This document shows, in pieces, positions 133 through 18,630 of a DNA stretch of 64,000 nt (positions are counted from its first letter, which is position 1; the number at the start of each line of letters is the position of its first letter). The translations under genes were made by a program, and so were the position numbers. Origin of the DNA: Deltaproteobacteria bacterium (GTDB lineage: Bacteria; Desulfobacterota; BSN033; WVXP01); contig JAFDHF010000002.1 in assembly GCA_019308905.1 (NCBI GenBank), positions 75,854 to 139,853 of the forward strand. Direction: 5' to 3'. A model generated the notes under the pieces. The model did no database searches. It was not told the origin of the DNA and saw only the letters and a program-made list of their open reading frames with translations.

Positions 133-161
133 TTGACATGATACATTAAACAGAATACACT
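133..161 (+). promoter_or_regulatory. sigma70-like promoter (TTGACA, 17 nt spacer, TACACT) upstream of the GntR gene; a TGTACA palindrome just downstream is a possible operator
   Basis: Read directly from the sequence: TTGACA at 133-138 and TACACT at 156-161. An alternative -10 TACAAT lies at 165-170. Confidence 0.4.
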
Positions 162-245: not shown

Positions 246-950
246 GTGTACTCTTACAGACAGATCTGGGAAACCATCGCCAGGGACGTTCAGGAAGATA
301 TCCTCAATGGTCGCTACAAACCGGGAGACCGGCTGAAGGAGAACGAACTGGCCACGAAATACTCGGTAAGCAACACCCCGGTCAGAGAGGCATTGAGGTA
401 CCTGGAGCGGATCGGCTTCGTCGAGATCATCCCCCGTACCATGGCCCGTGTGAGAAACATCAGCAAGAAAGAGCTTGAGAATCTGTTTACGATTCAGAGC
501 GTCTTGGAAGAACTGGCGGTTCAGCAAGCGGTCCCGAACCTCAGGGAGAGCGACTATCGAGACCTTGAGCAGTGCTTGCGTCTCATCGCCAAGTTCTATC
601 GTGAGGGGAACTACCCTGAATATGAGAAGGCCCATGTTCGCTTTCATTCCAGCATATGGAAGGCTTCCGACAACAAGGAGCTCGTCGAGCTTCTTCAAAA
701 CATCTACGATCGGGTCCGGAGGTTCAGGGCCGTGACACGCCGCCATCCCGACAGGTCGAAGGATGTGGCTGGACCTCACCGGGAGATATTGGACGCTGTT
801 GTCCAGAGGGATAGCAAAAGGGCGGGAAAACTGGTCCGCGCCCATCTGGAGAGATTCGTCAAAGAGATCGTTGCCATCTTGGAAAAGGAAGAAGAACCAT
901 CCCGTCTTCAGACCGGGGAGAAAGACCGGGCTGCTTCCACGGGCAGATGA
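246..950 (+). CDS. GntR-family transcriptional regulator with FadR/FCD-type C-terminal domain
   Basis: N-terminal winged-HTH signature (RLKENELATKYSVSNTPVREALRYLE) followed by a helical FCD-like domain. GTG start. Confidence 0.8.
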   Translation: MYSYRQIWETIARDVQEDILNGRYKPGDRLKENELATKYSVSNTPVREALRYLERIGFVEIIPRTMARVRNISKKELENLFTIQSVLEELAVQQAVPNLRESDYRDLEQCLRLIAKFYREGNYPEYEKAHVRFHSSIWKASDNKELVELLQNIYDRVRRFRAVTRRHPDRSKDVAGPHREILDAVVQRDSKRAGKLVRAHLERFVKEIVAILEKEEEPSRLQTGEKDRAASTGR

Positions 951-1151
951 CCCAGGCATAGCTTTCTGTTGTTGTAGGGCACAGGAGGAGAGTGTTTTGG
1001 TACACGACTCGAGAGAAAAGGGACCAACGGGCTCGATCTTGAAGTTGCCTTCCATGCCGGCCTGCCTTTCGCCAACGGCAGGCCGGCAGTACTCCGGCAC
1101 GGCTTTACGCGGGGTTCAATCAAGAATATTGCGTAGAAAGGAGGACTCCAA

Positions 1152-2675
1152 ATGAACAAGAAGGGCGTTCTAATAGTCTCTGTGCTTTTTCTCGCTCTCA
1201 TGGTAGTACCGTTGAGCACTTCCGGTGCGAATCCGAGGTACGGGGGCACGCTCAGAGCCAGCGTCTACCATGAAATAGTCACCGGCGACCCTCACAGGTC
1301 GAGCAGCTACGTCGATCGCCAGCTCTTGCAAAACCTCTACAACACCCTTGTCACCTATGACAAAGACCTGAATATAGTCCCGGAGCTTGCCGAATCGTGG
1401 AAGACCCCTGATCCAAAGACCTATATATTCAAGCTCCGGAAAGGTATCAAATTCCACGATGGAACAGAGTTCAATGCGGAGGCCGTGAAGTTCAACCTGG
1501 AACGGGTGCTCGATCCCAAGACGAAGTCACGCGCCAGGGGCGAGATATCTGCAATCAAATCCGTTGAAGTACTGGATGCCTACACGGTCAAGCTTAACCT
1601 CGCGTATCCCTTCAGCCCCTTGCTTGCAGGATTGACCGACAGGGCGGGGTTCATGATCTCCCCGACCGCTTTCAAGAAGATGGGGCCCGACGAGTTCGGC
1701 CGGCATCCTGTGGGAACCGGTCCTTTTGAGTTCGCCGAATGGGTGAGGGATGACCATCTGACCCTGAAGAGGTTCGAAGGATACTGGGAGAAGGGACTCC
1801 CTTACCTGGACAGGGTCGTATTCAAGCCCATTCCGGACCAGGCAGTAAAGCTCACCAACTTGAAGAGCGGCGCTCTCGACGTAATCGACGATGTCCTACC
1901 CAAGGATGTGAAGGGGGTCAAGAGAAGCAAGGACCTGCTCTTGTATGAGGTCCCCAGCTTCGGTTTCAACGCGTTGCGCCTCAACTGCACAAAACCGCCC
2001 TTCAACAACAAGGCCCTCCGCCAGGCTGTCGCCTATGCCGTAGACAGGGAGGCGATCTGGGAGCACCTCTTCTACAAGACGGGCATCGTGGGACATGGCC
2101 CGATCGCCCCGGTTTCATGGGCCTACGACCCGAACGACTTCAGGTACACCTGCGACCTGAACAAGGCGAGGGAGAAACTGCGAGAGGGAGGGAAGCCAAA
2201 AGGGTTCAAGTTCACGATGTACACGAAGATCTCGCCTATCGATGTCCAGGTTGCTCAGGTCATGCAGGCGCAGCTCAAGAGGGTCGGGATCGAAACCAAG
2301 ATCGTCCAGCTCGAAGGTGCCCTCCATCTGAAAGTGATGCTGGAGAAGACCTACGAGGGAAACTACGGCCTCTGGTCAGGCTATCCCGAGCCCGATACGA
2401 ACCTGTACAGGCAGTTTCACCCCAAGGGTTCGGCCAATTGGACCGGCTATGCCGACCCGAGGGTGACGGAGCTTCTGGACAAGGCCAGGGAATCGCTGAA
2501 CCACGCTGAACGCAAGAGGTATTACAGCGAAGCCCTGGACATCATTATCCGAGATGCGCCCCAGATATTCGTCTACTACTATCCTCGCCGGGCAGGCGTC
2601 AGCGCGAAGGTGCAGAACTTTGTCCTCTACCCGGATGGAAAGCTGCGGTTCAAGACGGTCTGGCTCAGCAGGTAA
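1152..2675 (+). CDS. ABC transporter substrate-binding protein, family 5 (DppA/OppA-like, peptide/opine/nickel type)
   Basis: AAAGGAGG ribosome-binding site, signal peptide, and the length and motifs typical of SBP_bac_5 proteins. Confidence 0.9.
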   Translation: MNKKGVLIVSVLFLALMVVPLSTSGANPRYGGTLRASVYHEIVTGDPHRSSSYVDRQLLQNLYNTLVTYDKDLNIVPELAESWKTPDPKTYIFKLRKGIKFHDGTEFNAEAVKFNLERVLDPKTKSRARGEISAIKSVEVLDAYTVKLNLAYPFSPLLAGLTDRAGFMISPTAFKKMGPDEFGRHPVGTGPFEFAEWVRDDHLTLKRFEGYWEKGLPYLDRVVFKPIPDQAVKLTNLKSGALDVIDDVLPKDVKGVKRSKDLLLYEVPSFGFNALRLNCTKPPFNNKALRQAVAYAVDREAIWEHLFYKTGIVGHGPIAPVSWAYDPNDFRYTCDLNKAREKLREGGKPKGFKFTMYTKISPIDVQVAQVMQAQLKRVGIETKIVQLEGALHLKVMLEKTYEGNYGLWSGYPEPDTNLYRQFHPKGSANWTGYADPRVTELLDKARESLNHAERKRYYSEALDIIIRDAPQIFVYYYPRRAGVSAKVQNFVLYPDGKLRFKTVWLSR

Positions 2676-2710
2676 GGCCTGACATTCATGCACTCGGTCC
2701 AGAAAGGCGC

Positions 2711-2746
2711 AAGGGCCGTCAAGGACACCTATTGACGACGGCCCTT
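2711..2746 (+). other. perfect 10-bp GC-rich stem-loop (aagggccgtc / gacggccctt, 16-nt loop) between the substrate-binding-protein gene and the permease genes
   Basis: Inverted repeat read directly from the sequence. There is no U-tract after it. Confidence 0.4.
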
Positions 2747-2844
2747 ACCCATGTTCTCCCTTCCCCTCTCGCACCAGCCAGAAGGGGAGGGAGAACGGAT
2801 GCCCGGTCGGAGACCGGCCCAAGGAGCCTGGAGAGTTCTATGCC

Positions 2845-3789
2845 ATGCTGAATTACATCATCCGCCGCCTCTTTGTAGCAGTCCCGGTTCTGCTGCTCAT
2901 CAGCATCATCGTCTTCCTGCTCGTCCACCTCCTCCCCGGTGACCCGGCCACGGTGATGCTGGGAGAGGAGAGCACCCCTGAGATGATCCAGGCCTTGAGG
3001 GCCGAACTAGGCCTCGACCAACCTCTCCACAAGCAGTACCTCCAATGGCTGACCCGATGTCTCTCCGGAGACTTCGGCCGTTCCATTCAGACCAGACAGC
3101 CCGTGAGCGAGGCATTGGTCCAGCGGCTCCCTGTAACGATCGAGCTGACCCTGCTCGGCTTCTGCGTCTCGATCATGATAGCTCTGCCCATTGCCGTTGC
3201 CAGCGCAGTGCGCCCCAATTCCTGGATAGATGTTATGGGCAGCGCGTTTGCCACAATCGGTATCTCAATGCCTTCCTTCTGGCTGGGAATCTTGCTGATC
3301 TATGCCTTTGCCGTCAGCCTCCATCTACTACCGGCATCGGGCTATGTTCCCCTCAGGGAGAGCGTGGTCCAGAATCTCCTGCACATGGTTCTGCCGGCTT
3401 TCACCCTCGGTATGTGGCTCAGTGCGTCGGCAATGCGCATGATCAGGGCCGGAATGATCGACGTGCTCGAACGCCCTTACATCCGCACGGCTAGAGCCAA
3501 GGGCCTTTCCGAGAGAAGGGTTCTATGGCATCACGCCCTCAAGAATGCGTTTATCCCTGTTGTCACTATTCTCGGCCTCCAGTTGGGGCGCCTGATGGGT
3601 GGCGCCGTGGTGACAGAAACGATCTTTGCCCAGCCGGGCGTCGGCCAATTGGCGGTCAAATCGATCTTCATGCGCGATTTCCCCCCGGTACAGGCGATCG
3701 TTCTGGTTATGGCGATCTCTATGCTTTTGAGTAGCCTGGTCGTCGATATCCTTTACTCGTTCTTGGATCCAAGGATAAGGCTCAGATAG
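2845..3789 (+). CDS. ABC transporter permease (DppB/OppB-like)
   Basis: Multi-pass membrane protein with the binding-protein-dependent transport EAA-loop region. TAG stop. Confidence 0.85.
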   Translation: MLNYIIRRLFVAVPVLLLISIIVFLLVHLLPGDPATVMLGEESTPEMIQALRAELGLDQPLHKQYLQWLTRCLSGDFGRSIQTRQPVSEALVQRLPVTIELTLLGFCVSIMIALPIAVASAVRPNSWIDVMGSAFATIGISMPSFWLGILLIYAFAVSLHLLPASGYVPLRESVVQNLLHMVLPAFTLGMWLSASAMRMIRAGMIDVLERPYIRTARAKGLSERRVLWHHALKNAFIPVVTILGLQLGRLMGGAVVTETIFAQPGVGQLAVKSIFMRDFPPVQAIVLVMAISMLLSSLVVDILYSFLDPRIRLR

Positions 3790-3797
3790 GACCCGCG

Positions 3798-4679
3798 ATG
3801 GAAGCAGTGACCATGATCACCGAGAGAGTCGGGAAGCTGTTCGGGTGGAGGACAAACGTTCTCCCCCTTTTCAGGCGTTTTCCCCTGCTGGTTTGCGGGA
3901 TAGCGGTTCTTGTGGTGGTAACCGTCGCCGCCATCGCGGCACCCCTGCTCTCCCCTTACGATCCCCTCGGCGTCGATCTCTCTGCAATGCTGGAGCCCCC
4001 GAATACCCGCCATCTTTTGGGAACCGACGATCTCGGTCGAGACCTCCTGAGCCGGATCATCTACGGCGGGAGGATCTCGCTGAGCGTTTCGGTCGGGTCC
4101 GTATCGATCTCCCTCGGCGTGGGACTCCTGATCGGACTCATAACAGGTTACTGGGGCGGATGGATCGACACGGTACTGATGCGGCTGATGGACGCCATCC
4201 TGGCCTTTCCCTCCCTGGTACTAGCCCTCGCCATAGCCGCAGCTCTGGGGGCGAAACTCGTCAACACGGCCATCGCCATCGGAATCGTCTACATCCCTCA
4301 GTTCGCCCGATTGGCACGAGGACAGGTGCTGGCGGTCCGCGGGCTCGAGTACATCCAGGCTTCAAGGGGTCTCGGTGCTTCCAATACCAGGATCATCTTG
4401 AGTCATATTCTCCCTAACATCGCGATGCCTCTTATCGTCCAGGTAACGCTTTCTCTGGGATACGCCATCCTCGCCGAAGCCGCTCTCAGTTTCCTCGGTG
4501 TCGGGGTTCAGCCACCCCAGGCCGCATGGGGCACCATGCTCAGGATGGGCTATCCATACCTGGACACGGCACCCTGGCTCGCCATCGTGCCGGGAGCCGC
4601 GATATTCGTCGTCGTAATGGCCTTCACCTTCGTGGGAGATGGAATAGGCAATCTCCTTGGAGGCGGGTCAAGGAGATAA
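3798..4679 (+). CDS. ABC transporter permease (DppC/OppC-like)
   Basis: Membrane permease paralog immediately downstream of the first permease. Confidence 0.85.
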   Translation: MEAVTMITERVGKLFGWRTNVLPLFRRFPLLVCGIAVLVVVTVAAIAAPLLSPYDPLGVDLSAMLEPPNTRHLLGTDDLGRDLLSRIIYGGRISLSVSVGSVSISLGVGLLIGLITGYWGGWIDTVLMRLMDAILAFPSLVLALAIAAALGAKLVNTAIAIGIVYIPQFARLARGQVLAVRGLEYIQASRGLGASNTRIILSHILPNIAMPLIVQVTLSLGYAILAEAALSFLGVGVQPPQAAWGTMLRMGYPYLDTAPWLAIVPGAAIFVVVMAFTFVGDGIGNLLGGGSRR

Positions 4680-4694
4680 GGATACGAGGAGATT

Positions 4695-5597
4695 ATGATG
4701 CTGAGACTGCCGAGGTTCGATTATGAGCGGCCGACGAGGTTGGACGACGCCATCGGATTGCTGGCCGACAGGGACGGAGATTCAAGGATTCTCGCTGGAG
4801 GAACCGACCTGATTGTGCAGATGAAGAAGGGCGTCTTGAACGCGGATCTCATCGTGGACATAAAGTCGATCCCTCAACTCGCGGAGATCTCTCTGGATCC
4901 GAAGGGAAACCTGGCCATAGGAGCCAACGTGACCCTTTCGGCACTCGAGGGTTGGATCACGACGGAAAGCAAATGGGCAGGCCTGCTGATGGCTGTGCGG
5001 ACCATCGGTTCCGAGCAGGTGCGCAACCGTGCCACCGTTGCCGGGAACATCTGCAGGGCCTCTCCTTCTGGAGACATGGCTCCCATGCTGATGGTCATGG
5101 ACGCGAAGGTGAAGATCAAGGGCCCCAATGGGTATCGAGCTCTTCCCCTGGATGGGTTTTTCGCGGGCCCCGGCCAAACCGTGCTCTCCCCCGGGGAGAT
5201 CGTAACGTCCATCCTGGTCCCCAAGCCTTCAGGGCGTTTCTCGGCCGTGTATCTGAAGCATGGAACCCGCCGCGCCATGGATCTCGCCATAGTCGGCACA
5301 GCCGTGAGTATCAGCATGGATGATAGCGGGAAGAACGTCCTCCAGGCGAGGATTGCCCTGGGGGCCGTGGCTCCCACACCCATAAGGGTTCCGGACGGGG
5401 AGAGGCTCCTCGTTCAAGAGGGATTCTCGGAGAGTGTCGTCCGGGAGATTGCTTCGATGGCGGCAGACCGCTCCCGGCCGATTACCGATATGAGGTCCAC
5501 GGACAGTTATAGGTACGAGATGGTGAAGGTCAATGTCAGAAGGGCGCTCGGGCAGGCTTGGGCCGGAGCAGCAAGCAGAGGGGAGAGGACTTCATGA
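4695..5597 (+). CDS. xanthine dehydrogenase / CO dehydrogenase family, FAD-binding medium subunit
   Basis: FAD-binding PCMH-type N-terminus (ILAGGTDLIVQMKKG) and a CO-dehydrogenase flavoprotein C-terminal domain. Confidence 0.85.
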   Translation: MMLRLPRFDYERPTRLDDAIGLLADRDGDSRILAGGTDLIVQMKKGVLNADLIVDIKSIPQLAEISLDPKGNLAIGANVTLSALEGWITTESKWAGLLMAVRTIGSEQVRNRATVAGNICRASPSGDMAPMLMVMDAKVKIKGPNGYRALPLDGFFAGPGQTVLSPGEIVTSILVPKPSGRFSAVYLKHGTRRAMDLAIVGTAVSISMDDSGKNVLQARIALGAVAPTPIRVPDGERLLVQEGFSESVVREIASMAADRSRPITDMRSTDSYRYEMVKVNVRRALGQAWAGAASRGERTS

Positions 5598-6067
5598 AAC
5601 CCATCGCTTTCCACTTGAACGGAGAGAAAGTCAGCATAGCCGTGGAACCCCATTGGACCCTCTTGCAGGTTCTAAGAGACGTCCTGCATCTGACCGGTAC
5701 CCATCGGGGATGTGAAACAGGGGACTGCGGCGCATGCACGGTGATCCTGGACGGCCTGGCCGTAAACTCCTGTCTGATTCTCGCAGTCGAGGTCGAAGGT
5801 AGGTCTGTAGTGACAATCGAAGGCCTTGCGAGAGAGGGGGAGTTGGACCCGGTTCAAAAGGCATTCGTGGACAGGGGGGCCATCCAGTGTGGATTCTGCA
5901 CCCCAGGGATGGTCATGGCTTCAAAGGCATTGCTCCAGAAAAACCCCTCGCCTACCAGGGAGGAAATCTCCTTCAGACTCGCGGGGAACATCTGTCGTTG
6001 CACGGGTTATACAAAAATCATCGAAGCCGTGATTGCGGCGTCCAAGACGGGGAATAGCCAGAAATGA
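5594..6067 (+). CDS. xanthine dehydrogenase family (2Fe-2S)-binding small subunit
   Basis: Plant-type ferredoxin cysteines (CETGDCGACTV) plus a second [2Fe-2S] motif (CGFCTPG, CRCTGY). Its ATG overlaps the upstream TGA. Confidence 0.85.
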   Translation: MKPIAFHLNGEKVSIAVEPHWTLLQVLRDVLHLTGTHRGCETGDCGACTVILDGLAVNSCLILAVEVEGRSVVTIEGLAREGELDPVQKAFVDRGAIQCGFCTPGMVMASKALLQKNPSPTREEISFRLAGNICRCTGYTKIIEAVIAASKTGNSQK

Positions 6068-8391
6068 AAGAGAATGTGACAGGGTATCACGTCGTCGGGA
6101 AGAGCGTGACGAGACTCGATGCTGTGGAAAAGGTGACCGGCCATGGAGAATACATCCCTGACCTCCATCGCCCAAACATGCTGCATGGTGCGATGCTGAG
6201 GAGCCCCATTCCCCACGGCAGGATCCTCGATGTCGACACGGCCCGGGCAAAACGCCTCCCCGGCGTGAAAGCCGTCATTACCGGGAGAGACATCCCGGAC
6301 ACCTTCCTGGGGTTCCAGATCGCGCAGGCGAACAAGCGGCCCCTGTGTCTGGACAAGGTCCGTTACGTGGGAGATGAGATAGCCGCCGTTGCCGCCGAAA
6401 GCGAAGAAACAGCCAGGGAGGCCTGTTCCCTGATCAGAGTTCAGTTCGAACCCCTTCCCGCTGTCTTCGATCCAGAATCCTCATTGGAACCCGAGGCGCC
6501 GCTCGTTCATGAGGACAAGCCAAGAAACATCTCCGGAGAGGTTCACAAGGTTTTCGGAGACGTCGAAGAGGGCTTTGCAAGGGCCTTCCGTGTTTTTGAG
6601 TCGACTTTCAGGACAACAGGTGTTGCCCACTGCTGTATGGAGACACGGGGCGCCTTGGCTGAGTTCGACATGCAAGGGCGGGTCACACTCTGGTCTACGA
6701 CCCAGTTTCCCCATGTTCTCCGGGATATCATGTCTCGGGTGCTCGACATGCCTGTCGGAAAGATTCGCGTGCGCAAGGCTTTCATCGGCGGAGGATTCGG
6801 GAGCCGCCAGTCGATGGATTCGGTGGATCCGGTCTGTGTCTTGCTGGCCCAGAAAACCGGGAGACCCGTCAGGATCGTCAAGACCAGACCAGAGGAGCTG
6901 GTATCGGACCGGATCCGCTATCCAATGATAATCAAGCTCAAGACCGGCGTCAAAGAAACGGGAGAACTCCTGGCCAGAAAGGTGGAAATCCTTACGGACG
7001 GCGGCGCTTACAATGATCAGGGACTCGCCGTGACAACCAGCGCGGGCTCGAAGATCACCGGTCTCTATCGTGTCCCAAACGTGGAGATCGACGGCATGGT
7101 GGTGTTCACCAATAAGGTCTGGGGCGGGGCTTTCCGCGGTTACGGCAATCCCCAAATCACCTTTGCCATCGAATCGCAGATGGATGAAATCGCAGAAGAG
7201 CTGGGGATGGGGAAACTCGAGCTCCGGCTCCTCAACGCCAACAGGCAGGGTGATGTGACCGTTGCAGGAGCGAGATACGTGAGCTGCGGCTTTACCGAAT
7301 GCCTCGAAAAGAGCACGGCCGCGGCAGGCTGGAAGGACGGGGAAAAAACAAAGCACGAAGTCGGGAAGGGCCCGAAGCTCCGCGGGATGGGAATGGCAGG
7401 GATGATCCATACAGGGGGCGGGGGTATCAGCGCCCACGGCGGCAATTTCTCGTCGGCCTTCATCAAGGTCGAGGAAGACGGGTCCGTGGATCTGCTGACC
7501 GGCGTTCCGGATGTCGGGCAGGGCTCTGACACTGTCCTCGCACAGATCGCCGCAGAGGAAATTGGCGTCTCCATGGAGGCCATGAGAATCCACGCAGGGG
7601 ACACGGCCATCACCCCCTCGACCCAGGGCGTTCGGGGATCACGGGAGACATTCGTGGCCGGCAACGCCGTCAGAATCGCCGCGAGGAAGGCGAAAGACGA
7701 ACTCCTGAAAAGGGGTTCTTCCATGCTGGGAGTGGGAAAAGAAGAACTCGAGGTGGCAGATGGGAGAATCTACGTGAGATCGAATCCCGGCAGATACGTC
7801 ACCGTTGCCCAGGCCGCCGCGTTGCCCATGTTTGACCGGGCCTCCGCCTTTCCCATGGGGGTGCCCGTCGTAGCAAGCAGCTGCTATGTGGACCCGGTGA
7901 GCAAGCCCTCTGACCGTGAAACCGGGTACGGGAACATCTGCCCCACCTGGGTGTTCGGGGCCCAGGTAGCAGAGGTCGAAGTCGATCGTGAAACAGGACA
8001 GGTGACCGTCATACGGGTGATTGCGGCTCACGATGTGGGAAAAGCGATAAATCCCTGTGCCGTCGAGGGGCAGTTCGAAGGGGCGATCGTTCAGGGCATA
8101 GGAATGGCTCTCTCTGAGAGGATCATCTGGCAGGATGGAGCGGTGGCGAACCGGTACCTCGGGGACTACAAGCTCCCCACTACTATGGACACTCCTGGTA
8201 TAGAGACCATTCTTGTCGAGACGAATGACCCTTACGGGCCGTTCGGGGCCAAGGGTGTGGGAGAGGCGGCCATAGTTCCCACGGCCGCTGCCATAGCGAA
8301 CGCCGTTTACGACGCAACTGGTGTCAGGATCAGGGAACTGCCGATAACAGCCGAAAAAGTGCTAGCGGCTCTGAAGCAGAAAGGAGGCTGA
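6064..8391 (+). CDS. xanthine dehydrogenase / aldehyde oxidase family molybdopterin-binding large subunit
   Basis: 775 aa. Aldehyde-oxidase/xanthine-dehydrogenase a/b hammerhead domain and molybdopterin-binding domain. ATGA overlap with the FeS subunit. Confidence 0.9.
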   Translation: MKENVTGYHVVGKSVTRLDAVEKVTGHGEYIPDLHRPNMLHGAMLRSPIPHGRILDVDTARAKRLPGVKAVITGRDIPDTFLGFQIAQANKRPLCLDKVRYVGDEIAAVAAESEETAREACSLIRVQFEPLPAVFDPESSLEPEAPLVHEDKPRNISGEVHKVFGDVEEGFARAFRVFESTFRTTGVAHCCMETRGALAEFDMQGRVTLWSTTQFPHVLRDIMSRVLDMPVGKIRVRKAFIGGGFGSRQSMDSVDPVCVLLAQKTGRPVRIVKTRPEELVSDRIRYPMIIKLKTGVKETGELLARKVEILTDGGAYNDQGLAVTTSAGSKITGLYRVPNVEIDGMVVFTNKVWGGAFRGYGNPQITFAIESQMDEIAEELGMGKLELRLLNANRQGDVTVAGARYVSCGFTECLEKSTAAAGWKDGEKTKHEVGKGPKLRGMGMAGMIHTGGGGISAHGGNFSSAFIKVEEDGSVDLLTGVPDVGQGSDTVLAQIAAEEIGVSMEAMRIHAGDTAITPSTQGVRGSRETFVAGNAVRIAARKAKDELLKRGSSMLGVGKEELEVADGRIYVRSNPGRYVTVAQAAALPMFDRASAFPMGVPVVASSCYVDPVSKPSDRETGYGNICPTWVFGAQVAEVEVDRETGQVTVIRVIAAHDVGKAINPCAVEGQFEGAIVQGIGMALSERIIWQDGAVANRYLGDYKLPTTMDTPGIETILVETNDPYGPFGAKGVGEAAIVPTAAAIANAVYDATGVRIRELPITAEKVLAALKQKGG

Positions 8392-8397
8392 GAGGCT

Positions 8398-9129
8398 GTG
8401 GAAGCACGTCTTTGTCGAAAATTGCAGGATACGCTCTGCCTTGAGAAAAAACCCGTGGTCGTTGCCCTCTCCGACCGCTCTCCCGAGGGGGTGGAAAGAT
8501 TCAAAGGCGAGCAAAAGGCCTGCGAGTTTATCGATACGGTCCGTGAGGAGGATCGCCCCTTTTACACGACCCTGGAAAACCAGTCTTGCAGAAACGGCAA
8601 CTACTATCTCGGGTTGGCTCCACCCTTCGAAGGGTTGATCACCGGTGAGCACAACGCCGGTGAAAACGGCCGCGGACTGGTCGGGTCCCCCGGAGCCTTC
8701 AGACGCCTCCTTTCGGGGTATGAGATCGTACCCACCGGTACTGTTTCCGTAATCACCTATGCTCCGTTGGATAGGGTTCCATTCTCGGACCGGTTCGGCG
8801 GGCAGGTGGTGGTCGTCAGCTGCCTGCCCAGACAGGCACTGCTGTTGTTGAGGGGTGCCAACTTCAGGACCGGCCACACCGTCCCCGGCTTGACGGGCCC
8901 ATCCACGTGCTCCAGCGTCATTGCGGCCCCCTTGCTCCGCGGTCAGGTCCACTACTCCCTGGGATGCTTTGGACTCAGGCTCTTCACCAAGATTCGAGAC
9001 GAAGAACTCGTTGTCGGCATCCCCCGGGAAGAGCTGGTGGAGGTGGTGGAAGGGTTGGAGCGGTTTCTCGAGGGGAGACCGGACTTGGGTGTCCAAGAAA
9101 AACAGAATAGGGAGACGGAACACGGCTGA
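8398..9129 (+). CDS. DUF169-family protein (uncharacterised archaeal-cluster-related protein, COG2043-like)
   Basis: About 240 aa, with a C-terminal SLGCFGLR motif resembling the conserved SLGCxGCR motif of DUF169. GTG start 6 nt after the molybdo-subunit stop. Confidence 0.5.
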   Translation: MEARLCRKLQDTLCLEKKPVVVALSDRSPEGVERFKGEQKACEFIDTVREEDRPFYTTLENQSCRNGNYYLGLAPPFEGLITGEHNAGENGRGLVGSPGAFRRLLSGYEIVPTGTVSVITYAPLDRVPFSDRFGGQVVVVSCLPRQALLLLRGANFRTGHTVPGLTGPSTCSSVIAAPLLRGQVHYSLGCFGLRLFTKIRDEELVVGIPREELVEVVEGLERFLEGRPDLGVQEKQNRETEHG

Positions 9130-9278
9130 TTGGAAAACGATGCGGCAGGACCGGTGAAATTCCATCACTTGTGGTTTCATGCACGGGATTCCGGCGTCTT
9201 TCCTGCGATTCGCCCCAGGTTGCATTTCTGGCTCTGTCCCTTGCTCCGACCGGGGGCGGGGATTTCTACTCCTAAGTC

Positions 9279-10259
9279 ATGGCCGAACTGCTAAGGATCA
9301 GCGAACTGAAAACCTATTTCTTCACGGACAAGGGTGTCATAAGGGCCGTGGACGGGGCGAGTCTCTCCCTCGACAAGGGAGATACCCTAGGTATTGTAGG
9401 TGAGTCCGGATGCGGGAAATCCGTGACTGCCCTGTCGGTCTTGAGACTGATTCCAAAGCCCGGGAGGCAGGTGGGGGGCACCATTGTTTTTGAAGGTGAG
9501 GATCTGGCGAAATTGGACGAATTGGAGATGCGCAGGATCAGGGGGAACAAGATATCCATGATCTTTCAGGAGCCCATGGCATCGCTCAATCCCGTCATCA
9601 AGGTGGGAGACCAAGTTGCCGAGGTGATCCAGCTCCACCAGCACCTATCCAAGAGGGACGCCCTCGAAAAAACCGTCCAGATGTTTCGCCTCGTGGGTAT
9701 TCCGGCACCTGAAGCCCGATTGAAGAACTATCCCCACCAGATGAGCGGCGGGATGCAGCAGAGGGTCATGATCGCAATGGCCCTTTCGTGCAATCCCCAC
9801 TTGATGATCGCCGACGAGCCCACGACGGCCTTGGATGTGACCATTCAGGCGCAGATTCTGGCCCTCATCAACACCCTCAAAGAACAGATCGGCATGTCTG
9901 TCATACTGATCACTCACGACTTGGGGATCGTGGCCGAAACGGCGCAGCACGTGGCGGTCATGTATGCGGGGAACGTGGTTGAGTACTGTGACGTCGTCTC
10001 CCTTTTCGAAGACCCATTGCACCCGTATACACGCGGTCTGCTGAACTCTATTCCCATGTCCACAAAGGGGCAGGGGCGCAAACAGAAACTCAGGGCGATT
10101 CCCGGTGTTGTACCGAACCTGCTGGAATTGCCGACCGGATGCAGGTTTCAGGATCGTTGCCTCTTGCGTTCAAGGCAGTGTCTTGAAAGCGAGCCGGAAT
10201 TGGTCGAACACAAACCAGGGCATCTTGTCAGATGTTGGAGGGCATCGGCCGATCGATGA
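9279..10259 (+). CDS. ABC transporter ATP-binding protein (DppD/OppD-like)
   Basis: Walker A (GESGCGKS), ABC signature (LSGGMQQR), Walker B, and an oligopeptide-type C-terminal extension. Confidence 0.9.
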
Positions 10260-11236
10260 AGGAACGGGAAGAAACCAGCCTGGTAGTCTTGAGGGACCTG
10301 AGAAAGCATTACCCGGTCCAGCACGGCCTTTTTTCGAGGACCCGGGCCGCGGTCAAGGCCGTCGACGGGGTCTCCCTTTCAATAATGAGAGGCGAAACAC
10401 TGGGGCTCGTCGGTGAAAGCGGATGCGGCAAATCCACCCTGGGGAGACTCATTCTGAGGTTTGAAGAACCTACAACAGGGAGTATCTACTTTGAAGGCCG
10501 GAACATCCTGGAGTTCGGCAGGAAGCAGATGAGGCATCTCAGGCGGGAAATGCAGATCATCTTTCAAGACCCCTTTTCATCCCTTGATCCGAGAAAGAAA
10601 GTCTCCAGTATACTGGCGGAGCCCTTCATTGTCCACAAGCTGGTCGCCAACAAAAGGGAGAGACAAGAGAAGGTTCTGAAACTGATGGAACTGGTGGGGC
10701 TGAGACCGGACCAGTCGAACCGCTATCCCCAGGAGTTCAGCGGCGGCCAGAGGCAGAGAATCGGAATAGCAAGGGCCCTGGCCCTGAATCCCAAACTGAT
10801 AATCGCCGATGAACCCATCTCCTCACTCGATCTTTCTATCCAAGCACAAGTCGTCAATCTGCTTGTGGATCTTCAGTTGAGGCTCGGGCTGACATATCTC
10901 TTTATCTCCCATGACCTGAGAGTGGTCCACCACGTAAGCGACAGGGTTGCGGTGATGTACCTCGGCAAGATCGTTGAATTGGCCGATGGAGAGACCCTGT
11001 ACAACGATCCTGTCCATCCATATTCGGAAGCACTCGTGGGATCCGCTCCTATTCCCAACCCGAAAGTGAAAAGGAAAAAGATCCTTCTTGAAGGAGACGT
11101 TCCGAGCCCGATCAACCCGCCTTCGGGATGCCGTTTCCACACGAGATGCCCCATACGAAAGGATCTCTGCTCAAGAGAGGACCCCCCCCTCGAACCGAGG
11201 GCAAACGGATCCATTGTGGCTTGCCATTTCAGATGA
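10232..11236 (+). CDS. ABC transporter ATP-binding protein (DppF/OppF-like)
   Basis: Walker A (GESGCGKST), signature (FSGGQRQR), and a cysteine-rich C-terminal region. Confidence 0.9.
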
Positions 11237-11277: not shown

Positions 11278-11306
11278 TTGACAAGAGAGTCCGCCCAGTA
11301 TATGAT
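11278..11306 (+). promoter_or_regulatory. sigma70-like promoter (TTGACA, 17 nt spacer, TATGAT) driving the riboswitch-btuB transcript
   Basis: Hexamers read directly from the sequence: TTGACA 11278-11283 and TATGAT 11301-11306. Confidence 0.5.
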
Positions 11307-11319
11307 ATGGGTGTGACAA

Positions 11320-11480
11320 GGTAAGCGGATGCTTTGGGTGTAGGGAAGACGGTTGGAAGCCGTCGCGGACCCGCCGCTGTGAGTGGGGACGAAAGCCACA
11401 CAGAGTGCCACTGTTCCGCGTGAGCGGAGCGGGAAGGCGTGGTGAGTAGGACGATCCACGAGCCAGAAAACCTGCCCAAG
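11320..11480 (+). ncRNA. cobalamin (adenosylcobalamin) riboswitch aptamer
   Basis: Contains GGGAAG...GGTTGGAAGCCG...CCCGCCGCTGTGAG...GCCACTG and the B12 box AGCCAGAAAACCTGCC (11461-11476). It lies upstream of a TonB-dependent receptor gene. Confidence 0.75.
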
Positions 11481-11533
11481 GCGTTTCTCCATGAAGATTC
11501 CTCGAGGAGTGGGAAAATGGAGTGGGCCAACAG

Positions 11534-11576
11534 AGAAAGCCTGATCTTCGTCGGGGATCAGGCTTTCTTTTTCTGA
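11534..11576 (+). terminator. intrinsic terminator / riboswitch expression-platform attenuator (agaaagcctgatc ... gatcaggctttct followed by a TTTTCT tract)
   Basis: 13-bp inverted repeat followed by a T-tract, between the aptamer and the btuB-like start codon. Confidence 0.6.
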
Positions 11577-11726: not shown

Positions 11727-13838
11727 ATGAAGCCATCGCACAACCCCACACGTCCGCCGAAATCGACGGCCCGACCCGCCCACCCTTCACGGCACGGCAG
11801 GAGTCCGAAATCCCTTGCAAGGGGCCTCCTGGCACTCGCCTGTGCAGGGAGCCTCGCGCTGGCCCTGGATTCCACACCCTCTCCGGCCCAGGAGCCCGAT
11901 GAGAAGTCGGAGGTCCCCGTACTTCGCGAGGTTGTCGTAACGGCGACGAGACGGCAGGAAGAGATCCGGAAGGTCCCGGGCAACGTCACCGTCATCACCG
12001 AGAAGGACATAGAGAACTGGGAGACGATGACCGTGGCCGATCTGCTCCGGTCACAGGAAGGGATCGTGGTGAGAGATCTCCTGGGAAACGGAAAGGCCGC
12101 CCAGGTGGACCTCCGTGGATTCGGGGAGACAGCGCCCTTCAACACCCTCGTCCTGGTTGACGGGAGACGGGTCAACGAGATCGATCTGAGCGGTGTCGAT
12201 TGGACCCAGATCCCTCTGGATCAGGTGGAGCGCTTGGAGATCGTCCGGGGCACCGGAAGCGTCCTGTACGGGGACAACGCGGTTGGTGGAGTGATCAATA
12301 TCATCACCAAATCCCCTGAGGGAAAACCTTCGGCCATGATCGGCGGCGTCGGCGGAAGTTACGGGCGCAACGGGGCCAAAGCCTCTGTCGGCGGCGGGAC
12401 CGAGAAAATCGCGGCCTCTTTGACCGGCAGCTATGACGCAACAAGCGGATACAGGGACAACGAAGACTTCCGGAGAGGGGATGTCGGAGGAAAGGTCATC
12501 TACGATGTGACCGACGCTATCAGCCTCAACCTTACCGGATCCTATCACCGTGACGAATACGGTCTGCCGGGCCCACTCACGGAAGCAGAAGTCGAGGTGG
12601 ACAGGCGGTCCACCAGCAGGCCCCTCGACAATGCCAGAACCAGGGACGGGTACCTGAAGCTCGGCACGGATTGGGATCTGGGAGAGTACGGGCGAATCGT
12701 GGCGGACCTCTCGTACAGGGACCGGAACAACAGGGACGAGTTCGTCAGCTATTCGTCGGCTTCGGATCGGGATACCGCAACCTGGGCCTTCACCCCTCGA
12801 TACATCTGGGACGGAGAGATCACGGACCGCCCAAACACCCTCACCGCAGGAATCGATATCTATGCATCCGACCTGGACGCGGATTTTTTCTTTGGAACGC
12901 CCCTTGCTCCCTCGGGCTTTTCCAGGATCGAAAAGGATTCCTACGGGTTTTATGCGAGCGATGAATTTTCCCTGTCCGACAACCTCATCCTTTCCCTGGG
13001 TGCCCGGCACGAAGAGGTCAAGTACGATCTCGAACAGGAGGATTTCCTCTTCGGCCTCGTCCCCCTGGATGAAACAGTGAAAGACTCTGCAAATGCATAC
13101 ACCGCAGGACTCACCCTCCTCTACGGCAAAGGATCCTCCGCCTTTGTCCGAGTCAACCAGAGTTTTCGATTTCCCCTCACGGATGAACTCGTCGTCTTTG
13201 ATTTCGTGAATACGGGAAGCATTCGGATAAATTCCGACATCAAGCCTCAGATCGGCCATCACCTCGATATAGGGGTGAGACACTTCTTCACCCCCGACGT
13301 GCAAGCCAACGTCACCCTCTTCCACGCGGAGATCGAGGACGAGATCTTTTTCAATCCGCTGACCTACACCAACGAGAACTATCCGGAAACCCTGCACCAG
13401 GGCATCGAGGTCGGAGCGAGGGCGCAACTGCTCAAGAAGATTACGGTTTTCGGAAACTATACCTACGAGAAGGCGACCTTCGAGAAGGGTTCCTTCAGCG
13501 GCAACGACATACCCGCCGTACCGAGACACAAGGCAAACCTCGGACTCAAGATCAGTGATTTCGCCCCTGGACTTACCTTCGCTGCCGACTACAACTACGT
13601 GGGCTCGAGCTACCTCATCAGCGACGTCGCCAACGATTCGTCCAAGCTCGATGCTTATTTCACGGTCAATGCCAGGCTCACCTACAACTGGAAATGGCTC
13701 AGGGCCTATGCCGGCGTGAACAACGCGACAGACGAAAAGTACTCCGAATACGGCGTGGTCTCAGGTTTCTCTCAGACCTCTTACTTCTATCCCGCCCCTG
13801 GAAGGAACTGGGTGGCGGGCATCGAGGCCAGCTTTTAA
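11727..13838 (+). CDS. btuB: TonB-dependent outer-membrane receptor, BtuB-like (probable corrinoid transporter)
   Basis: Signal peptide, TonB box (EVVVTAT), plug domain, 22-strand barrel ending in a C-terminal aromatic residue (…GIEASF), and a cobalamin riboswitch upstream. Confidence 0.85.
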   Translation: MKPSHNPTRPPKSTARPAHPSRHGRSPKSLARGLLALACAGSLALALDSTPSPAQEPDEKSEVPVLREVVVTATRRQEEIRKVPGNVTVITEKDIENWETMTVADLLRSQEGIVVRDLLGNGKAAQVDLRGFGETAPFNTLVLVDGRRVNEIDLSGVDWTQIPLDQVERLEIVRGTGSVLYGDNAVGGVINIITKSPEGKPSAMIGGVGGSYGRNGAKASVGGGTEKIAASLTGSYDATSGYRDNEDFRRGDVGGKVIYDVTDAISLNLTGSYHRDEYGLPGPLTEAEVEVDRRSTSRPLDNARTRDGYLKLGTDWDLGEYGRIVADLSYRDRNNRDEFVSYSSASDRDTATWAFTPRYIWDGEITDRPNTLTAGIDIYASDLDADFFFGTPLAPSGFSRIEKDSYGFYASDEFSLSDNLILSLGARHEEVKYDLEQEDFLFGLVPLDETVKDSANAYTAGLTLLYGKGSSAFVRVNQSFRFPLTDELVVFDFVNTGSIRINSDIKPQIGHHLDIGVRHFFTPDVQANVTLFHAEIEDEIFFNPLTYTNENYPETLHQGIEVGARAQLLKKITVFGNYTYEKATFEKGSFSGNDIPAVPRHKANLGLKISDFAPGLTFAADYNYVGSSYLISDVANDSSKLDAYFTVNARLTYNWKWLRAYAGVNNATDEKYSEYGVVSGFSQTSYFYPAPGRNWVAGIEASF

Positions 13839-14198: not shown

Positions 14199-14939
14199 TC
14201 ACGGGTTCAAGGCAACCACAAGGCCGAGGGAAAGGACCTCGGACAGCTCATCCGCTGCTCCCAGGACGTCGCCCGTGATGCCTCCCAGTCTGTGGTGGAA
14301 GTAGAGACGAATCCCACGGCTCAACAGTACGTTGGCTGCCAGAACCGCCACTCCCTTAAGGCCGAACAGCCCCACCGCGGCTGCCAGGGCGGAAAAGGTG
14401 GAAACCACGATCTCTCTTCTGCCCACTCCCAGGGCAAAGGGGCGGGCGAGTCCTCCTTCTGGCCGAGCATAGGAGGAACCATGGATTACCTGGACCATGG
14501 ACCACCGGCCGAGGGTGGCCATCAGGATCAAGGAGCGGTCCAGGATCGACCAGGGAGTCTCTGCAATAAGGGTGAGCTTGAGGAGGAGAATGCACACCAG
14601 GCCCACGGCTCCAAAGGCCCCTACCCGGCTGTCCCGCATGATCCTGAGTCTCTCTTGCCTGGTCCTGCCGCTTCTCAGACCGTCGATCGTGTCCGAGAGG
14701 CCGTCCAGATGCAGCGCCCCCGTGACCAGCACAAGAGCCACCACCAGGAGCACCGCCACGACCCTCTGGGGGAAGAAGAGAAGGAACAGGTGCCTGGAAG
14801 CGACCAAAATCAGCCCGATGCAAAAGCCCACAAGGGGATAGTAGGCCATGGACCGCGCCATCTCCAGGTCGGAGAAGCCGGTGCGTCCCGGAACGGGGAT
14901 AACGGTAAGGAATCGGACTGCAGCCACGAATTCTCTCAT
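14199..14939 (-). CDS. cobS: adenosylcobinamide-GDP ribazoletransferase (cobalamin 5'-phosphate synthase)
   Basis: The MREFVAAVRFLTVIPVP N-terminus is typical of CobS, and the protein is polytopic. The true start is the internal ATG at 14937-14939, not the longer ORF listed in the track. Confidence 0.8.
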   Translation of the reverse strand: MREFVAAVRFLTVIPVPGRTGFSDLEMARSMAYYPLVGFCIGLILVASRHLFLLFFPQRVVAVLLVVALVLVTGALHLDGLSDTIDGLRSGRTRQERLRIMRDSRVGAFGAVGLVCILLLKLTLIAETPWSILDRSLILMATLGRWSMVQVIHGSSYARPEGGLARPFALGVGRREIVVSTFSALAAAVGLFGLKGVAVLAANVLLSRGIRLYFHHRLGGITGDVLGAADELSEVLSLGLVVALNP

Positions 14940-15475
14940 CCCTTGTCCTTTACGACCAAGGGGATCCCTGCAACCATCAGGACAACCCTGTCGGCCGCTT
15001 GGGCGACTCTCTGATTGAGCCTCCCTGCCAAGTCCCTGAAAGAACGGGCCAGCGGATTCTCGGGTACGACTCCCCACCCCACCTCGTTGGAAACCAAAAC
15101 TACGGGGATCTTTGTGGTCTTCAAAGACCCGACCAAGCCCTCGAGCCTCTCTTCCATGCCGTCCTTGTCCTCGCGGTAGGTCATCAGCAGGTTGGAAACC
15201 CATAGGGTGAGGCAGTCGATCAGGACCACGCTGTACCTGTCCTGAGCCTCGGAGAGGACCCTTGCGATCTCCAGCGGCTCTTCCCTGGTCTCCCACAGAT
15301 CTCCACGCTCACGCCTGTGATTCTCGATTCTTTCTGCCATCTCACGGTCGAGGGCCTGGGCCGTGGCGACGAAGAGTCTCTTCCCCTGAAAGGCCTCTCC
15401 TATCTCCCGGGCATACAGGCTCTTGCCGCTCCGGGCGGCCCCCAGTACGAGAATGACCCGAGGGGTGCCTCCCAT
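14936..15475 (-). CDS. cobU: bifunctional adenosylcobinamide kinase / adenosylcobinamide-phosphate guanylyltransferase
   Basis: P-loop (GAARSGKS) and CobU/CobP length. Its stop overlaps the cobS start (ATGA). A GGAGG ribosome-binding site precedes the ATG at 15475. Confidence 0.85.
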   Translation of the reverse strand: MGGTPRVILVLGAARSGKSLYAREIGEAFQGKRLFVATAQALDREMAERIENHRRERGDLWETREEPLEIARVLSEAQDRYSVVLIDCLTLWVSNLLMTYREDKDGMEERLEGLVGSLKTTKIPVVLVSNEVGWGVVPENPLARSFRDLAGRLNQRVAQAADRVVLMVAGIPLVVKDKG

Positions 15476-15513
15476 GGGGTCGCCTCCGGCTCTCCTGTCG
15501 TCTCCCATCTCCG

Positions 15514-16218
15514 CTACCTCTTCCACCCACCGAAGCGGGCCGCTCTCCCGCGGGAATCCCGGCCTCCCGGTGATTTATCTTCGCCCAGACGCGACCGAAT
15601 CCCGCTGGTAACCGCCTGTCTTACCGCTTGACCGATCAACGAGCCTATGGGAGTATGTTTCCCCGCATATCTCTCACCCCTTCTCCTCCATGGAGAAGCC
15701 ACTGCGATGCAGTCCGTACCCGTTCCCGTGGCGGGTCTTCCACTGACTCGACTCTTGAGGAGTGAATCCATGAAAGCGGCGGTTCGCGCCTCGGCCGCGA
15801 GGGAGACGACCTCAACCATGGCCCCCCTGGAGAGAGGCACGGAGACATGACACAAGAGATTGACGGTTCCGACTACCCCTCCTGTGCCGGGGGGATCCCC
15901 CACGGCAAGAGCGTTCGAGAGGCCAACCGTGGCGATACAGCCCACCGTCAGTGACCCGTCAGACCTTCTTACGTCCTGATATCCCTTCAGGTCGGTGCCG
16001 GTCATCATGCCCACGCCACAGGAAAGACGCGCCTCCTTGAGGCGCCTCCTCAGCAGACGAACCGGATCCACGTCCGGTCCCAGTTCCCCTTCTTTCACCT
16101 GCAGCCAGGCCAAGCTCCTGCTCTTTCTAAACCCGCCGCCCACGACGGCCCAGCTCAAGATCCGCATCTCCTCTCCGAACCGGACGACCAGGAACCGACC
16201 TCTTTTCTCGACAACCAT
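15514..16218 (-). CDS. cbiZ: probable adenosylcobinamide amidohydrolase (CbiZ family)
   Basis: About 230 aa, lying between cobD and cobU in a cobinamide salvage operon. The assignment rests on size, context and weak motif similarity. Confidence 0.5.
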   Translation of the reverse strand: MVVEKRGRFLVVRFGEEMRILSWAVVGGGFRKSRSLAWLQVKEGELGPDVDPVRLLRRRLKEARLSCGVGMMTGTDLKGYQDVRRSDGSLTVGCIATVGLSNALAVGDPPGTGGVVGTVNLLCHVSVPLSRGAMVEVVSLAAEARTAAFMDSLLKSRVSGRPATGTGTDCIAVASPWRRRGERYAGKHTPIGSLIGQAVRQAVTSGIRSRLGEDKSPGGRDSRGRAARFGGWKR

Positions 16219-16302
16219 AGAGCCGACCCCCTCTCGGCTTGACGATCCTGATCGGTCTGCCCCCGGGAACCGGAACAGGCCGGCAAGACCCTGGAGGATC
16301 CG

Positions 16303-18323: not shown

Positions 18324-18376
18324 TTCCTGCTCCTTTCCCCCGAAGAACTCCCAGGGAAGCGTCGCCTAACAGAGTG

Positions 18377-18428
18377 GACAAAAGATAAGGGCTTCGACGG
18401 ACTATCAAGCATCCCCGTCGGAGCCCTT
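18377..18428 (-). terminator. putative attenuator hairpin in the expression platform of the second cobalamin riboswitch
   Basis: On the minus-strand RNA: GGGCTCCGACGG...CCGTCGAAGCCC (one mismatch) followed by a TTATCTTTTGT tract, lying between the aptamer and the cobT start. Confidence 0.4.
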
Positions 18429-18439
18429 TGCCATCGAGT

Positions 18440-18622: not shown

Positions 18623-18630
18623 AAATTCAT

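Follow-up and report, generated by a model that had tools for sequence, protein, structure and literature searches.

A DUF169 gene and a xanthine-dehydrogenase-family hydroxylase inside a Dpp/Opp-type importer operon of a deltaproteobacterium

The window analysed here is a stretch of 64,000 nucleotides (nt) from Deltaproteobacteria bacterium (NCBI GenBank assembly GCA_019308905.1, contig JAFDHF010000002.1, positions 75,854 to 139,853). It carries an operon for a Dpp/Opp-type ATP-binding cassette (ABC) importer that is split, between its permease and ATPase genes, by four non-transporter genes. They encode the flavin adenine dinucleotide (FAD), [2Fe-2S] (FeS) and molybdenum (Mo) subunits of a xanthine dehydrogenase (XDH)-family hydroxylase and a DUF169 protein. 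The combination of an importer, a first enzyme and a GntR regulator follows an ordinary operon logic, and within its well-known family the hydroxylase is unremarkable. What is new is that hydroxylases of this family are tightly and repeatedly paired with DUF169. At odds slightly better than even (roughly 55%), we read the operon as a substrate-inducible cassette for uptake and first oxidation of a solute, in which DUF169 is a dedicated partner of the hydroxylase.

Gene order of the operon

Gene content was established from the list of open reading frames (ORFs) together with Pfam and NCBIfam scans of the window proteins. Ten genes, all on the forward strand, code for the regulator, the binding protein, two permeases, the FAD, 2Fe-2S and Mo subunits, DUF169 and two ATPases (Table 1). 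The three sources agree on this order and on the GntR/FCD regulator upstream, both of which had been given in a preliminary description of the locus. Given the domain E-values, and given that the same order is met again in another locus (see below), the arrangement is far beyond chance. The start of the 2Fe-2S gene is most likely the ATG at 5594, which lies behind GGGGAGAGGA and overlaps the stop codon of the FAD gene (ATGA), and not the TTG at 5558. In the same way the second ATPase probably starts at the ATG at 10256, in an ATGA overlap with the stop codon of the first ATPase gene, and not at 10232. Proteins identical or at least 90% identical to the window DUF169 protein (MBW2120620.1/MBW2056132.1) and Mo protein (MBW2120621.1/MBW2056131.1) are present at NCBI under generic names only.

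Pairing of DUF169 with XDH-family hydroxylases

The orthologs of the window Mo subunit form a clear group at 60-74% identity, and gene neighbourhoods were available for 12 of their loci, 13 with the window. DUF169 follows the Mo gene directly in 10 of these 13 loci and one further cluster has it at another position. An independent test in the opposite direction used loci retrieved by DUF169 alone from a protein database, 185,579 species genomes and Joint Genome Institute (JGI) metagenomes, in which XDH-family genes were located by tblastn; 26 distinct loci had enough flanking sequence. In 20 of them DUF169 and an XDH-family Mo gene are no more than 2 kb apart, usually 150-180 nt, and the number rises to 21 within 4 kb (the locus named L001, at 3.8 kb, being included). 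The conserved neighbourhood that the preliminary description had suggested looking for was thus found from either side. The annotated hosts of the DUF169 loci are Deltaproteobacteria, Burkholderiales and other Betaproteobacteria, Woeseiaceae and Rariloculaceae (Delta-, Beta- and Gammaproteobacteria). No DUF169 relative was present in the plasmids searched, and no description of the pairing was found in the searchable literature.

The DUF169 proteins concerned fall in two clades that share about 30% identity, and members of either clade are found beside a Mo subunit. Loci L020 and L041 carry both clades, each next to a different XDH enzyme. The window-type Mo subunit is accompanied by clade-1 DUF169 in the window, in L001 and in the P0026 contig, and by clade-2 DUF169 in L013, L014, L016, L004, L040 and L041. 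DUF169 is therefore exchangeable among hydroxylases, which favours a generic enzyme-directed role over a substrate-specific step. Note that the association is established for these two clades only and not for the whole family. Among the exceptions, L034 has an XDH-type FeS-CoxG fusion a short way upstream of DUF169, and L002 has a tungsten/molybdenum aldehyde:ferredoxin oxidoreductase gene immediately upstream of it. In L040, a Desulfobacterales metagenome-assembled genome (MAG), the Mo gene (5769-8077) was called as two ORFs of 668 and 115 amino acids (aa), likely a frameshift or assembly error and not a real truncation.

The hydroxylase

The Mo subunit matches domains PF01315, PF02738 and PF20256 with E-values from 1e-31 to 1e-82. 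It carries the motifs TTQ (residues 212-214), GGGFG (242) and FRGYG (357) and the catalytic-Glu motif GVGE (731-734). The small subunit holds both 2Fe-2S cysteine motifs (C-x4-C-x2-C-x11-C and C-x2-C-x31-C-x-C), and the FAD subunit has an AGGTDL motif and a single Cys in its whole length. The features that define membership of the XDH family, namely the large-subunit domains and motifs and the combination of two [2Fe-2S] clusters with an FAD subunit, are thus all present. A twin-arginine N-terminus is absent from the FeS and Mo subunits; the enzyme looks cytoplasmic, with its cofactor sites apparently intact, and this location fits an imported compound.

Among NCBIfam models the Mo subunit scores best with 4hydrxCoA_A (701 bits, cut-off 994.55), and the beta and gamma models of 4-hydroxybenzoyl-coenzyme A (CoA) reductase give 154 bits (cut-off 404.55) and 187 bits (cut-off 257.8). 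The best solved relative is 1rm6_A (504 bits), aligned end to end over residues 8-771. This structure is the alpha subunit of HcrABC of Thauera aromatica (PDB 1rm6/1sb3), an enzyme which has the same three-subunit Mo/2x[2Fe-2S]/FAD architecture as the window enzyme. HcrABC carries, however, an extra [4Fe-4S] cluster on a Cys-rich loop of its FAD subunit and works in a CoA-thioester pathway, whereas the window has neither feature and an importer operon instead. The window FAD subunit is colinear with the 287-aa CutM and aligns with 1rm6_B only over 115-290 versus 150-322, with an offset of about 35 residues. Identity with 4-hydroxybenzoyl-CoA reductase was rejected on these grounds: the [4Fe-4S] loop of about 35 residues is missing and the three models stay below their cut-offs. 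Many homologues carry the JGI label “4-hydroxybenzoyl-CoA reductase”. The label is not justified for the window enzyme, and automatic pipelines mislabel its clade.

Canonical xanthine dehydrogenase was rejected as well. The XdhABC enzymes of enterobacterial/clostridial type (NF043082-NF043084, PRK09970) share the subunit split and have similar sizes, and they provide the second-best family models, but all the window subunits score below the cut-offs: XdhA 632 bits against 780, XdhB 222 against 310 and XdhC 194 against 217. The other xanthine dehydrogenase models give the same result (PRK09970, 611 bits against 916; pucD, 502 against 784; xanthine_xdhB, 322 against 850). No curated cut-off is reached by the enzyme. 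The residue after GGGFGxx is Gln in the window Mo subunit (GGGFGSRQ), at a position that we take to be Glu in purine-oxidising XDHs, the XDH numbering being likewise assumed. Form I aerobic carbon monoxide (CO) dehydrogenase is a third rejected candidate, with 374 bits against a cut-off of 991 and no AYxCSFR Cys loop; the equivalent loop reads GGAFRGYGNPQ, and neither RC.FR nor Y.C.FR occurs in the subunit. By its sequence, the enzyme is a genuine XDH-family hydroxylase, and its specificity is assigned by none of the named curated families.

The DUF169 protein

The match to DUF169 (PF02596/COG2043) reaches 128 bits, against a gathering score of 27, and covers the whole model (positions 1-209 of 209). 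When 1.84 billion cluster representatives were searched with a profile, only 1,088 members were identified at E <= 0.001, 22 of them at E <= 1e-30. Among 133 diverse full-length representatives Cys42 is conserved in 97%, Cys64 in 98% and Cys171 in 97%, and position 190 is Cys in 60% and Asp in 19%. All four Cys (42, 64, 171 and 190) are invariant in the XDH-linked clade. A confident AlphaFold model of the protein (mean predicted local distance difference test score, pLDDT, 83; predicted template modelling score, pTM, 0.83) places the invariant Cys at or beside the N-termini of helices 41-51, 65-70 and 170-181. By analogy with known metalloproteins, an Fe-S cluster or a site of reactive thiols is probably formed by the three invariant Cys together with the fourth Cys/Asp position. 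No solved relative was found by sequence, and Foldseek gave no match at E <= 0.001. The preliminary description had called DUF169 proteins uncharacterised, and the searchable literature indeed gives no function for them.

The XdhC/PaoD/CoxF-CoxI chaperones are encoded by small accessory genes co-transcribed with XDH-family genes, and an analogous role can be envisaged for DUF169. DUF169 was nevertheless rejected as a member of the XdhC_CoxI family of Mo-cofactor chaperones: only PF02596 matches, the two have no sequence relationship, and the predicted DUF169 fold is without a solved relative. A separately encoded fourth small protein is known to be required by HpdA1A2A3A4, the XDH-family 3-hydroxypyridine dehydrogenase of Ensifer adhaerens (bioRxiv 10.1101/2020.01.08.898148). 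Like the window, its gene cluster includes a GntR regulator and ABC-transporter genes. Its fourth component is, however, of SRPBCC/CoxG type and unrelated to DUF169, and its genes are not interleaved with those of the transporter. In a STRING table one DUF169 protein is linked to the selenium-related YedE at rank 7 (PMC5322559), a weak lead only.

The importer and its linkage to the hydroxylase

The window has the complete five-component Dpp/Opp-type set, with a family-5 binding protein, two permeases and two oligo_HPY ATPases. It shares this set with the Dpp, Opp, Gsi and Nik importers and differs from them by the four inserted genes and by a binding protein that falls outside their equivalogs. 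The binding protein has an N-terminal signal peptide (N-terminus MNKKGVLIVSVLFLALMVVPLSTSGA). It scores below the cut-off of every equivalog, those of dipeptide, oligopeptide, glutathione, nickel and opine specificity included, with GsiB giving the highest score (243 bits, cut-off 594). Among solved proteins 5u4o_A is the closest (265 bits, ligand not named); GsiB/YliB gives 222 bits and AgaA 197 bits. The first permease is just over the cut-off of Opp2B (357 bits against 350), with related families scoring similarly, and the permeases score near nickel or peptide models. Of the ATPases, the second exceeds the PRK11308 cut-off (430 bits against 408).

Dpp/Opp genes are linked to the hydroxylase in 4 of the 13 orthologous loci, the window included, once in identical gene order. 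The linkage is real and kept in a sub-lineage. In the independent P0026 contig (Mo subunit 68% identical) the order permease-FAD-FeS-Mo-DUF169-ATPase-ATPase is that of the window, with gaps of 55 nt at most. L001 (Mo 69%) reads permC-FAD-FeS-Mo-ATPD-ATPF-SBP5-DUF169, followed by a gene of the Asp/Glu-racemase family; the hydroxylase still sits between permease and ATPases, and the binding protein is 68% identical to that of the window. L015 (Mo 70%) has a UbiX-like gene, FAD-FeS-Mo and then permB-permC-ATPD-ATPF-UbiD-SBP5, and also TctABC. The interruption of the importer genes by the hydroxylase and DUF169, as first described for the window, is repeated in the P0026 contig, and shuffled orders with a Dpp/Opp system are found in L001 and L015. 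Other transporters neighbour the hydroxylase elsewhere: an SBP_bac_1-type ABC system in L004/5, L040 and L041, a Liv-type system in L039 and TctABC in L013. No transporter is found on the available sequence of L014, L016, L020 and the P0020 contig.

Junctions, spacers and control signals

Most junctions of the operon are overlapping or 15 nt at most. The two permease genes are 8 nt apart and the second permease gene is followed after 15 nt, with a GAGGAG ribosome-binding site (RBS), by the FAD gene. The FAD/FeS and FeS/Mo junctions are ATGA overlaps, and the Mo and DUF169 genes are separated by 6 nt, with AAAGGAGG upstream of the DUF169 start. An RBS is found at each junction from the second permease through DUF169, and the two ATPase genes again overlap by ATGA. 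The exceptions are three spacers of 149-201 nt (Table 1). The preliminary description of several junctions as tight or overlapping is thus correct, but the genes for DUF169 and the first ATPase are not close together; the equivalent spacer measures about 55 nt in related loci.

Table 1. Genes, spacers and candidate control signals of the operon region (positions in the window)
Feature	Position	Strand	Remarks
Sigma-70-like promoter candidate, TTGACA-17-TACACT	133-161	+	10/12 consensus matches; upstream of regulator gene
GntR-family regulator with FCD effector domain	246-950	+	Pfam GntR 9.5e-18, FCD 4.5e-26
Regulator/binding-protein spacer	951-1151		201 nt
Strong hairpin, 15-nt arms, 93% complementary	1055-1088	+	Between regulator and binding-protein genes
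Family-5 (Dpp/Opp/Nik/Gsi-type) periplasmic binding protein	1152-2675	+	Pfam SBP_bac_5 5.7e-97
Binding-protein/first-permease spacer	2676-2844		169 nt
Two stable hairpins 3' of binding-protein gene	2711-2796	+	Both stems in centroid; no T-tract behind
DppB/OppB-type permease	2845-3789	+	BPD_transp_1_N + BPD_transp_1
DppC/OppC-type permease	3798-4679	+	OppC_N + BPD_transp_1
FAD-binding medium subunit, XDH-family hydroxylase	4695-5597	+	FAD_binding_5 + CO_deh_flav_C
Small subunit, two [2Fe-2S] clusters	5594-6067	+	Fer2 + Fer2_2
Molybdopterin-binding large (Mo) subunit	6064-8391	+	Ald_Xan_dh_C + MoCoBD_1 + MoCoBD_2
DUF169 (PF02596) protein	8398-9129	+	243 aa, GTG start; Pfam 4.8e-37
DUF169/first-ATPase spacer	9130-9278	+	149 nt; one weak terminator-like hairpin at 9239-9261
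DppD/OppD-type ATPase	9279-10259	+	ABC_tran + oligo_HPY
DppF/OppF-type ATPase	10256-11236	+	ABC_tran + oligo_HPY; start 10256 preferred, 10232 possible

None of the three long spacers holds a convincing terminator, and the number of terminator-like sites in the region (11) equals that expected from shuffled sequences (10.9). Promoter-like sites inside the operon likewise stay at the level of the shuffles. The preliminary description had named separate promoters or terminators between the transporter and hydroxylase genes as an argument against a common unit; none was seen on the permease side. The fold of the DUF169-ATPase spacer is not unusual (z = +0.23), and the GC content is uniform across the junctions (0.57-0.60). 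We infer co-transcription of the importer, hydroxylase and DUF169 genes across 1152-11236 from the tight junctions, the lack of an excess of terminator-like sites and the conserved order.

Sigma-70-like sites number 6 in the region, with 3.6 expected, and the candidate in front of the regulator gene is no more than a match to the consensus. Just upstream of it, at 97-120, there is a perfect tandem duplication of GACCCCTTCGTG. A repeat scan of 60-1200 for a GntR operator gave no convincing palindrome near the promoter candidate. The regulator scores below the cut-off of every named NCBIfam equivalog (best phnR_burk, 113 bits against 271). The hairpin between the regulator and binding-protein genes is present in both the minimum free energy and the centroid folds of 951-1100, with no T-tract behind it, and could be an operator or an RNA structure. 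The sequence 3' of the binding-protein gene (2676-2825) folds with z = -3.56; of 200 shuffled sequences, one reached a fold as stable. This is the usual site for an expression-raising structure, and the two hairpins found there are likely mRNA-stabilising or attenuating, raising the output of the binding protein over that of the downstream genes.

Proposed function and alternative explanations

In the proposed cassette the solute or its product would probably cause the GntR/FCD regulator to derepress the operon. The binding protein would capture a small organic solute in the periplasm and the DppBCDF-type core would import it to the cytoplasm, import being the presumed direction of transport. 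The imported solute is presumably the hydroxylase substrate. It would be oxidised at a carbon adjacent to a ring nitrogen, or at a comparably activated position, with water as oxygen donor and electrons passing from Mo through the 2Fe-2S clusters to FAD. Translational coupling of the hydroxylase genes to the second permease gene would let enzyme and importer be made together.

DUF169 would serve the hydroxylase and not the transporter. It might act in cofactor maturation, that is, in Mo-cofactor insertion or sulfuration, the job done by XdhC/PaoD elsewhere; this option is suggested because no XdhC_CoxI gene is listed among the Pfam-annotated genes of related loci. Alternatively it might be an electron-transfer module; the [4Fe-4S] cluster present in cis in the closest relative is notably missing in the window enzyme. 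In a bolder reading, less likely than not, DUF169 is the unrecognised fourth component of a widespread XDH-family clade. It would be a Cys-ligated Fe-S or persulfide carrier, with a fold unseen in solved structures, that inserts, sulfurates or selenates the Mo cofactor in the place of XdhC or forms an electron entry/exit module. That the hydroxylase cannot do without DUF169, the latter being an obligate partner, is a similarly doubtful step beyond the pairing itself.

The substrate is probably a carboxylated N-heterocycle or a cyclic amide/ureide, on account of the genes that neighbour orthologous hydroxylases. These code for amidohydrolase, CN-hydrolase, members of the Asp/Glu/hydantoin-racemase family, OTCase with carbamate kinase, a second XDH trio, UbiD/UbiX, and TctABC and tripartite ATP-independent periplasmic (TRAP) carboxylate transporters. 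This argues against a plain purine, and the N-heterocycle-type substrate first put forward for the enzyme would find its counterpart in these neighbours. Clusters often hold two different XDH-family trios (L013 8627-20373, L016 1-13226, L020, L040, L041), and the paired trios together with amidohydrolase, CN-hydrolase or OTCase/carbamate kinase genes suggest a ureide or heterocycle pathway with two hydroxylations. A URO-D/MtaA-like gene and a cupin-helix-turn-helix regulator adjoin the hydroxylase in L040 and L041. In a marine-sediment contig (L004 7753-10163/L005 9439-9921) the order FAD-FeS-Mo-DUF169 (Mo 64%) is followed by GrdA and a glycine-reductase-family gene. The gene caller divided GrdA into two pieces, which is what an in-frame UGA codon for selenocysteine would cause. 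The gene order links the hydroxylase to glycine/sarcosine/betaine reductase.

Several observations weigh against the import-and-hydroxylate cassette with DUF169 as hydroxylase partner. The pairing with the importer is loose, as 9 of the 13 orthologous hydroxylase loci are without Dpp/Opp linkage. The preliminary description had held that unlinked orthologous loci would speak against one functional unit, and the objection applies to these nine and not to the four in which linkage is kept. The conserved unit is therefore the hydroxylase with DUF169, and the importer is an interchangeable add-on. The Dpp/Opp genes of L015 are more distant, with a binding protein only 31% identical to that of the window, and no DUF169 gene is found on the available contigs of L015 and L039. 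The ligand of the window binding protein is not assignable from its solved relatives, whose ligands are unrelated or unnamed. The 149-nt spacer with its weak hairpin before the ATPase genes may reflect a second transcript start or partial termination. DUF169 also occurs with no XDH gene near: in L017 it is followed by a dimethyl sulfoxide-reductase-family molybdoenzyme, in L018 it lies between isochorismatase-family and hydantoinase A genes, and in L026 between DctM and peptidase M20. A nitrate-fitness cluster of Desulfovibrio has a DUF169 gene beside a TauE-type permease (PMC4001038), and DUF169 is occasionally linked to SepRS in archaea (PMC8762117). The family is therefore not exclusively a hydroxylase factor.

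These occurrences away from XDH genes (L017, L018, L026; PMC4001038; PMC8762117) would suit a DUF169 protein that is itself a pathway enzyme, namely a reductase, (de)hydratase or isomerase that depends on a [4Fe-4S] cluster or a thiol. It would convert the hydroxylated heterocycle or the precursor of it, in a step consecutive to that of the hydroxylase. Three invariant Cys and a variable fourth ligand would also, by analogy, be the pattern of catalytic Fe-S enzymes with an open iron site. Aconitase, IspH and NadA are enzymes of this kind. Ring-opening or ureide genes moreover lie directly after DUF169 in several loci, coding for Amidohydro_1 (L040, L041), the Asp/Glu-racemase family (L001, L014), peptidase M20 (L026) and hydantoinase A (L018). 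In two clusters (L020 and L041), however, divergent DUF169 paralogues each stand beside their own, different XDH enzyme, and the window Mo clade is found with either DUF169 clade. DUF169 also follows Mo subunits only 30-41% identical to that of the window, whose substrates probably differ, which a substrate-specific enzyme would not be expected to do. We regard a pathway enzyme as unlikely, although it is the alternative that deserves most attention. It is decidedly less probable that the juxtaposition is meaningless, a hydroxylase-DUF169 module having landed in a peptide, nickel or glutathione importer operon with an unrelated substrate. The widely varying type of transporter beside orthologous hydroxylases, the permease scores near nickel or peptide models and the spacer between the DUF169 and ATPase genes would be accounted for in this way. 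Two other contigs with 68-69% protein identity, however, retain the interrupted order, and a neutral split of an essential transporter operon would be unlikely to last so long. The uniform GC content, the 15-nt permease-FAD gap with its RBS and a binding protein that reaches none of the peptide, nickel or glutathione equivalog cut-offs also speak against such a landing.

The enzyme might finally act reductively on an aromatic CoA thioester, as a 4-hydroxybenzoyl-CoA reductase. The best solved relative, the best family model and the JGI labels all carry that name. The scores of the three subunit models below their cut-offs stand against it, and an FAD subunit with a single Cys and without the [4Fe-4S] loop contradicts the defining feature of that enzyme. 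In addition, the operon has no CoA-ligase or benzoyl-CoA-pathway gene, and it encodes an importer, although CoA esters are not imported. We give this identity hardly any credence. A cassette that imports a solute and hydroxylates it with the help of DUF169 is the reading that we retain.

Other features of the window

The operon is immediately followed by a strong sigma-70-like promoter (TTGACA-17-TATGAT, 11278-11306) and a cobalamin riboswitch (11319-11493, 99 bits) with a terminator-like hairpin near 11540-11575. With the TonB-dependent receptor gene behind the riboswitch (11727-13838), these elements form a B12 uptake unit of BtuB type. On the reverse strand, another cobalamin riboswitch (18443-18633) precedes genes for CobT (DBI_PRT), CobD, CbiZ and CobS (14199-18633). 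The set is a cobamide salvage or remodelling operon, and the presence of CbiZ implies that the lower ligand is removed and replaced.

The segment 18660-48567 is dense in genes for catabolism of nitrogen compounds, none of which could be tied to the hydroxylase operon. Two aldehyde:ferredoxin oxidoreductases (26948-28732 and 35313-37268) and an ATP-dependent hydantoinase A/B (29899-33861) are encoded on the reverse strand. The segment also has genes for saccharopine dehydrogenase, class-III aminotransferases, peptidase M20, a Liv-type ABC system, a creatinase/prolidase-type M24 enzyme (46003-47247) and an agmatine-deiminase-like protein (47263-48567).

A methylamine methyltransferase region (54743-57700) is followed by genes for a corrinoid protein (57747-58427) and a non-pyrrolysine (Pyl) MttB-family protein (58469-59953). 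The mttB gene has an in-frame UAG at 55724-55726 (AGG*ADSK) followed exactly by Rfam PYLIS_3 (82 bits), and mtbB has one at 57320-57322 (DGL*VGTGDP) followed exactly by PYLIS_2 (83 bits). The in-frame UAG codons and PYLIS elements indicate the use of pyrrolysine in this deltaproteobacterial MAG. No tRNA gene, tRNA-Pyl included, was found in the window.

Implications

The operon offers, with one binding protein, one enzyme and one regulator, a compact test system for the substrate of an unassigned hydroxylase clade. If DUF169 is a maturation or electron partner, it would be a new component for Mo hydroxylases in anaerobes, many of which are without an operon-linked XdhC, and would explain the failed heterologous expression of such enzymes. 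If the pairing has the meaning proposed here, it would provide the first function for DUF169, a family that counts about a thousand clusters at 50% identity and extends to archaea.

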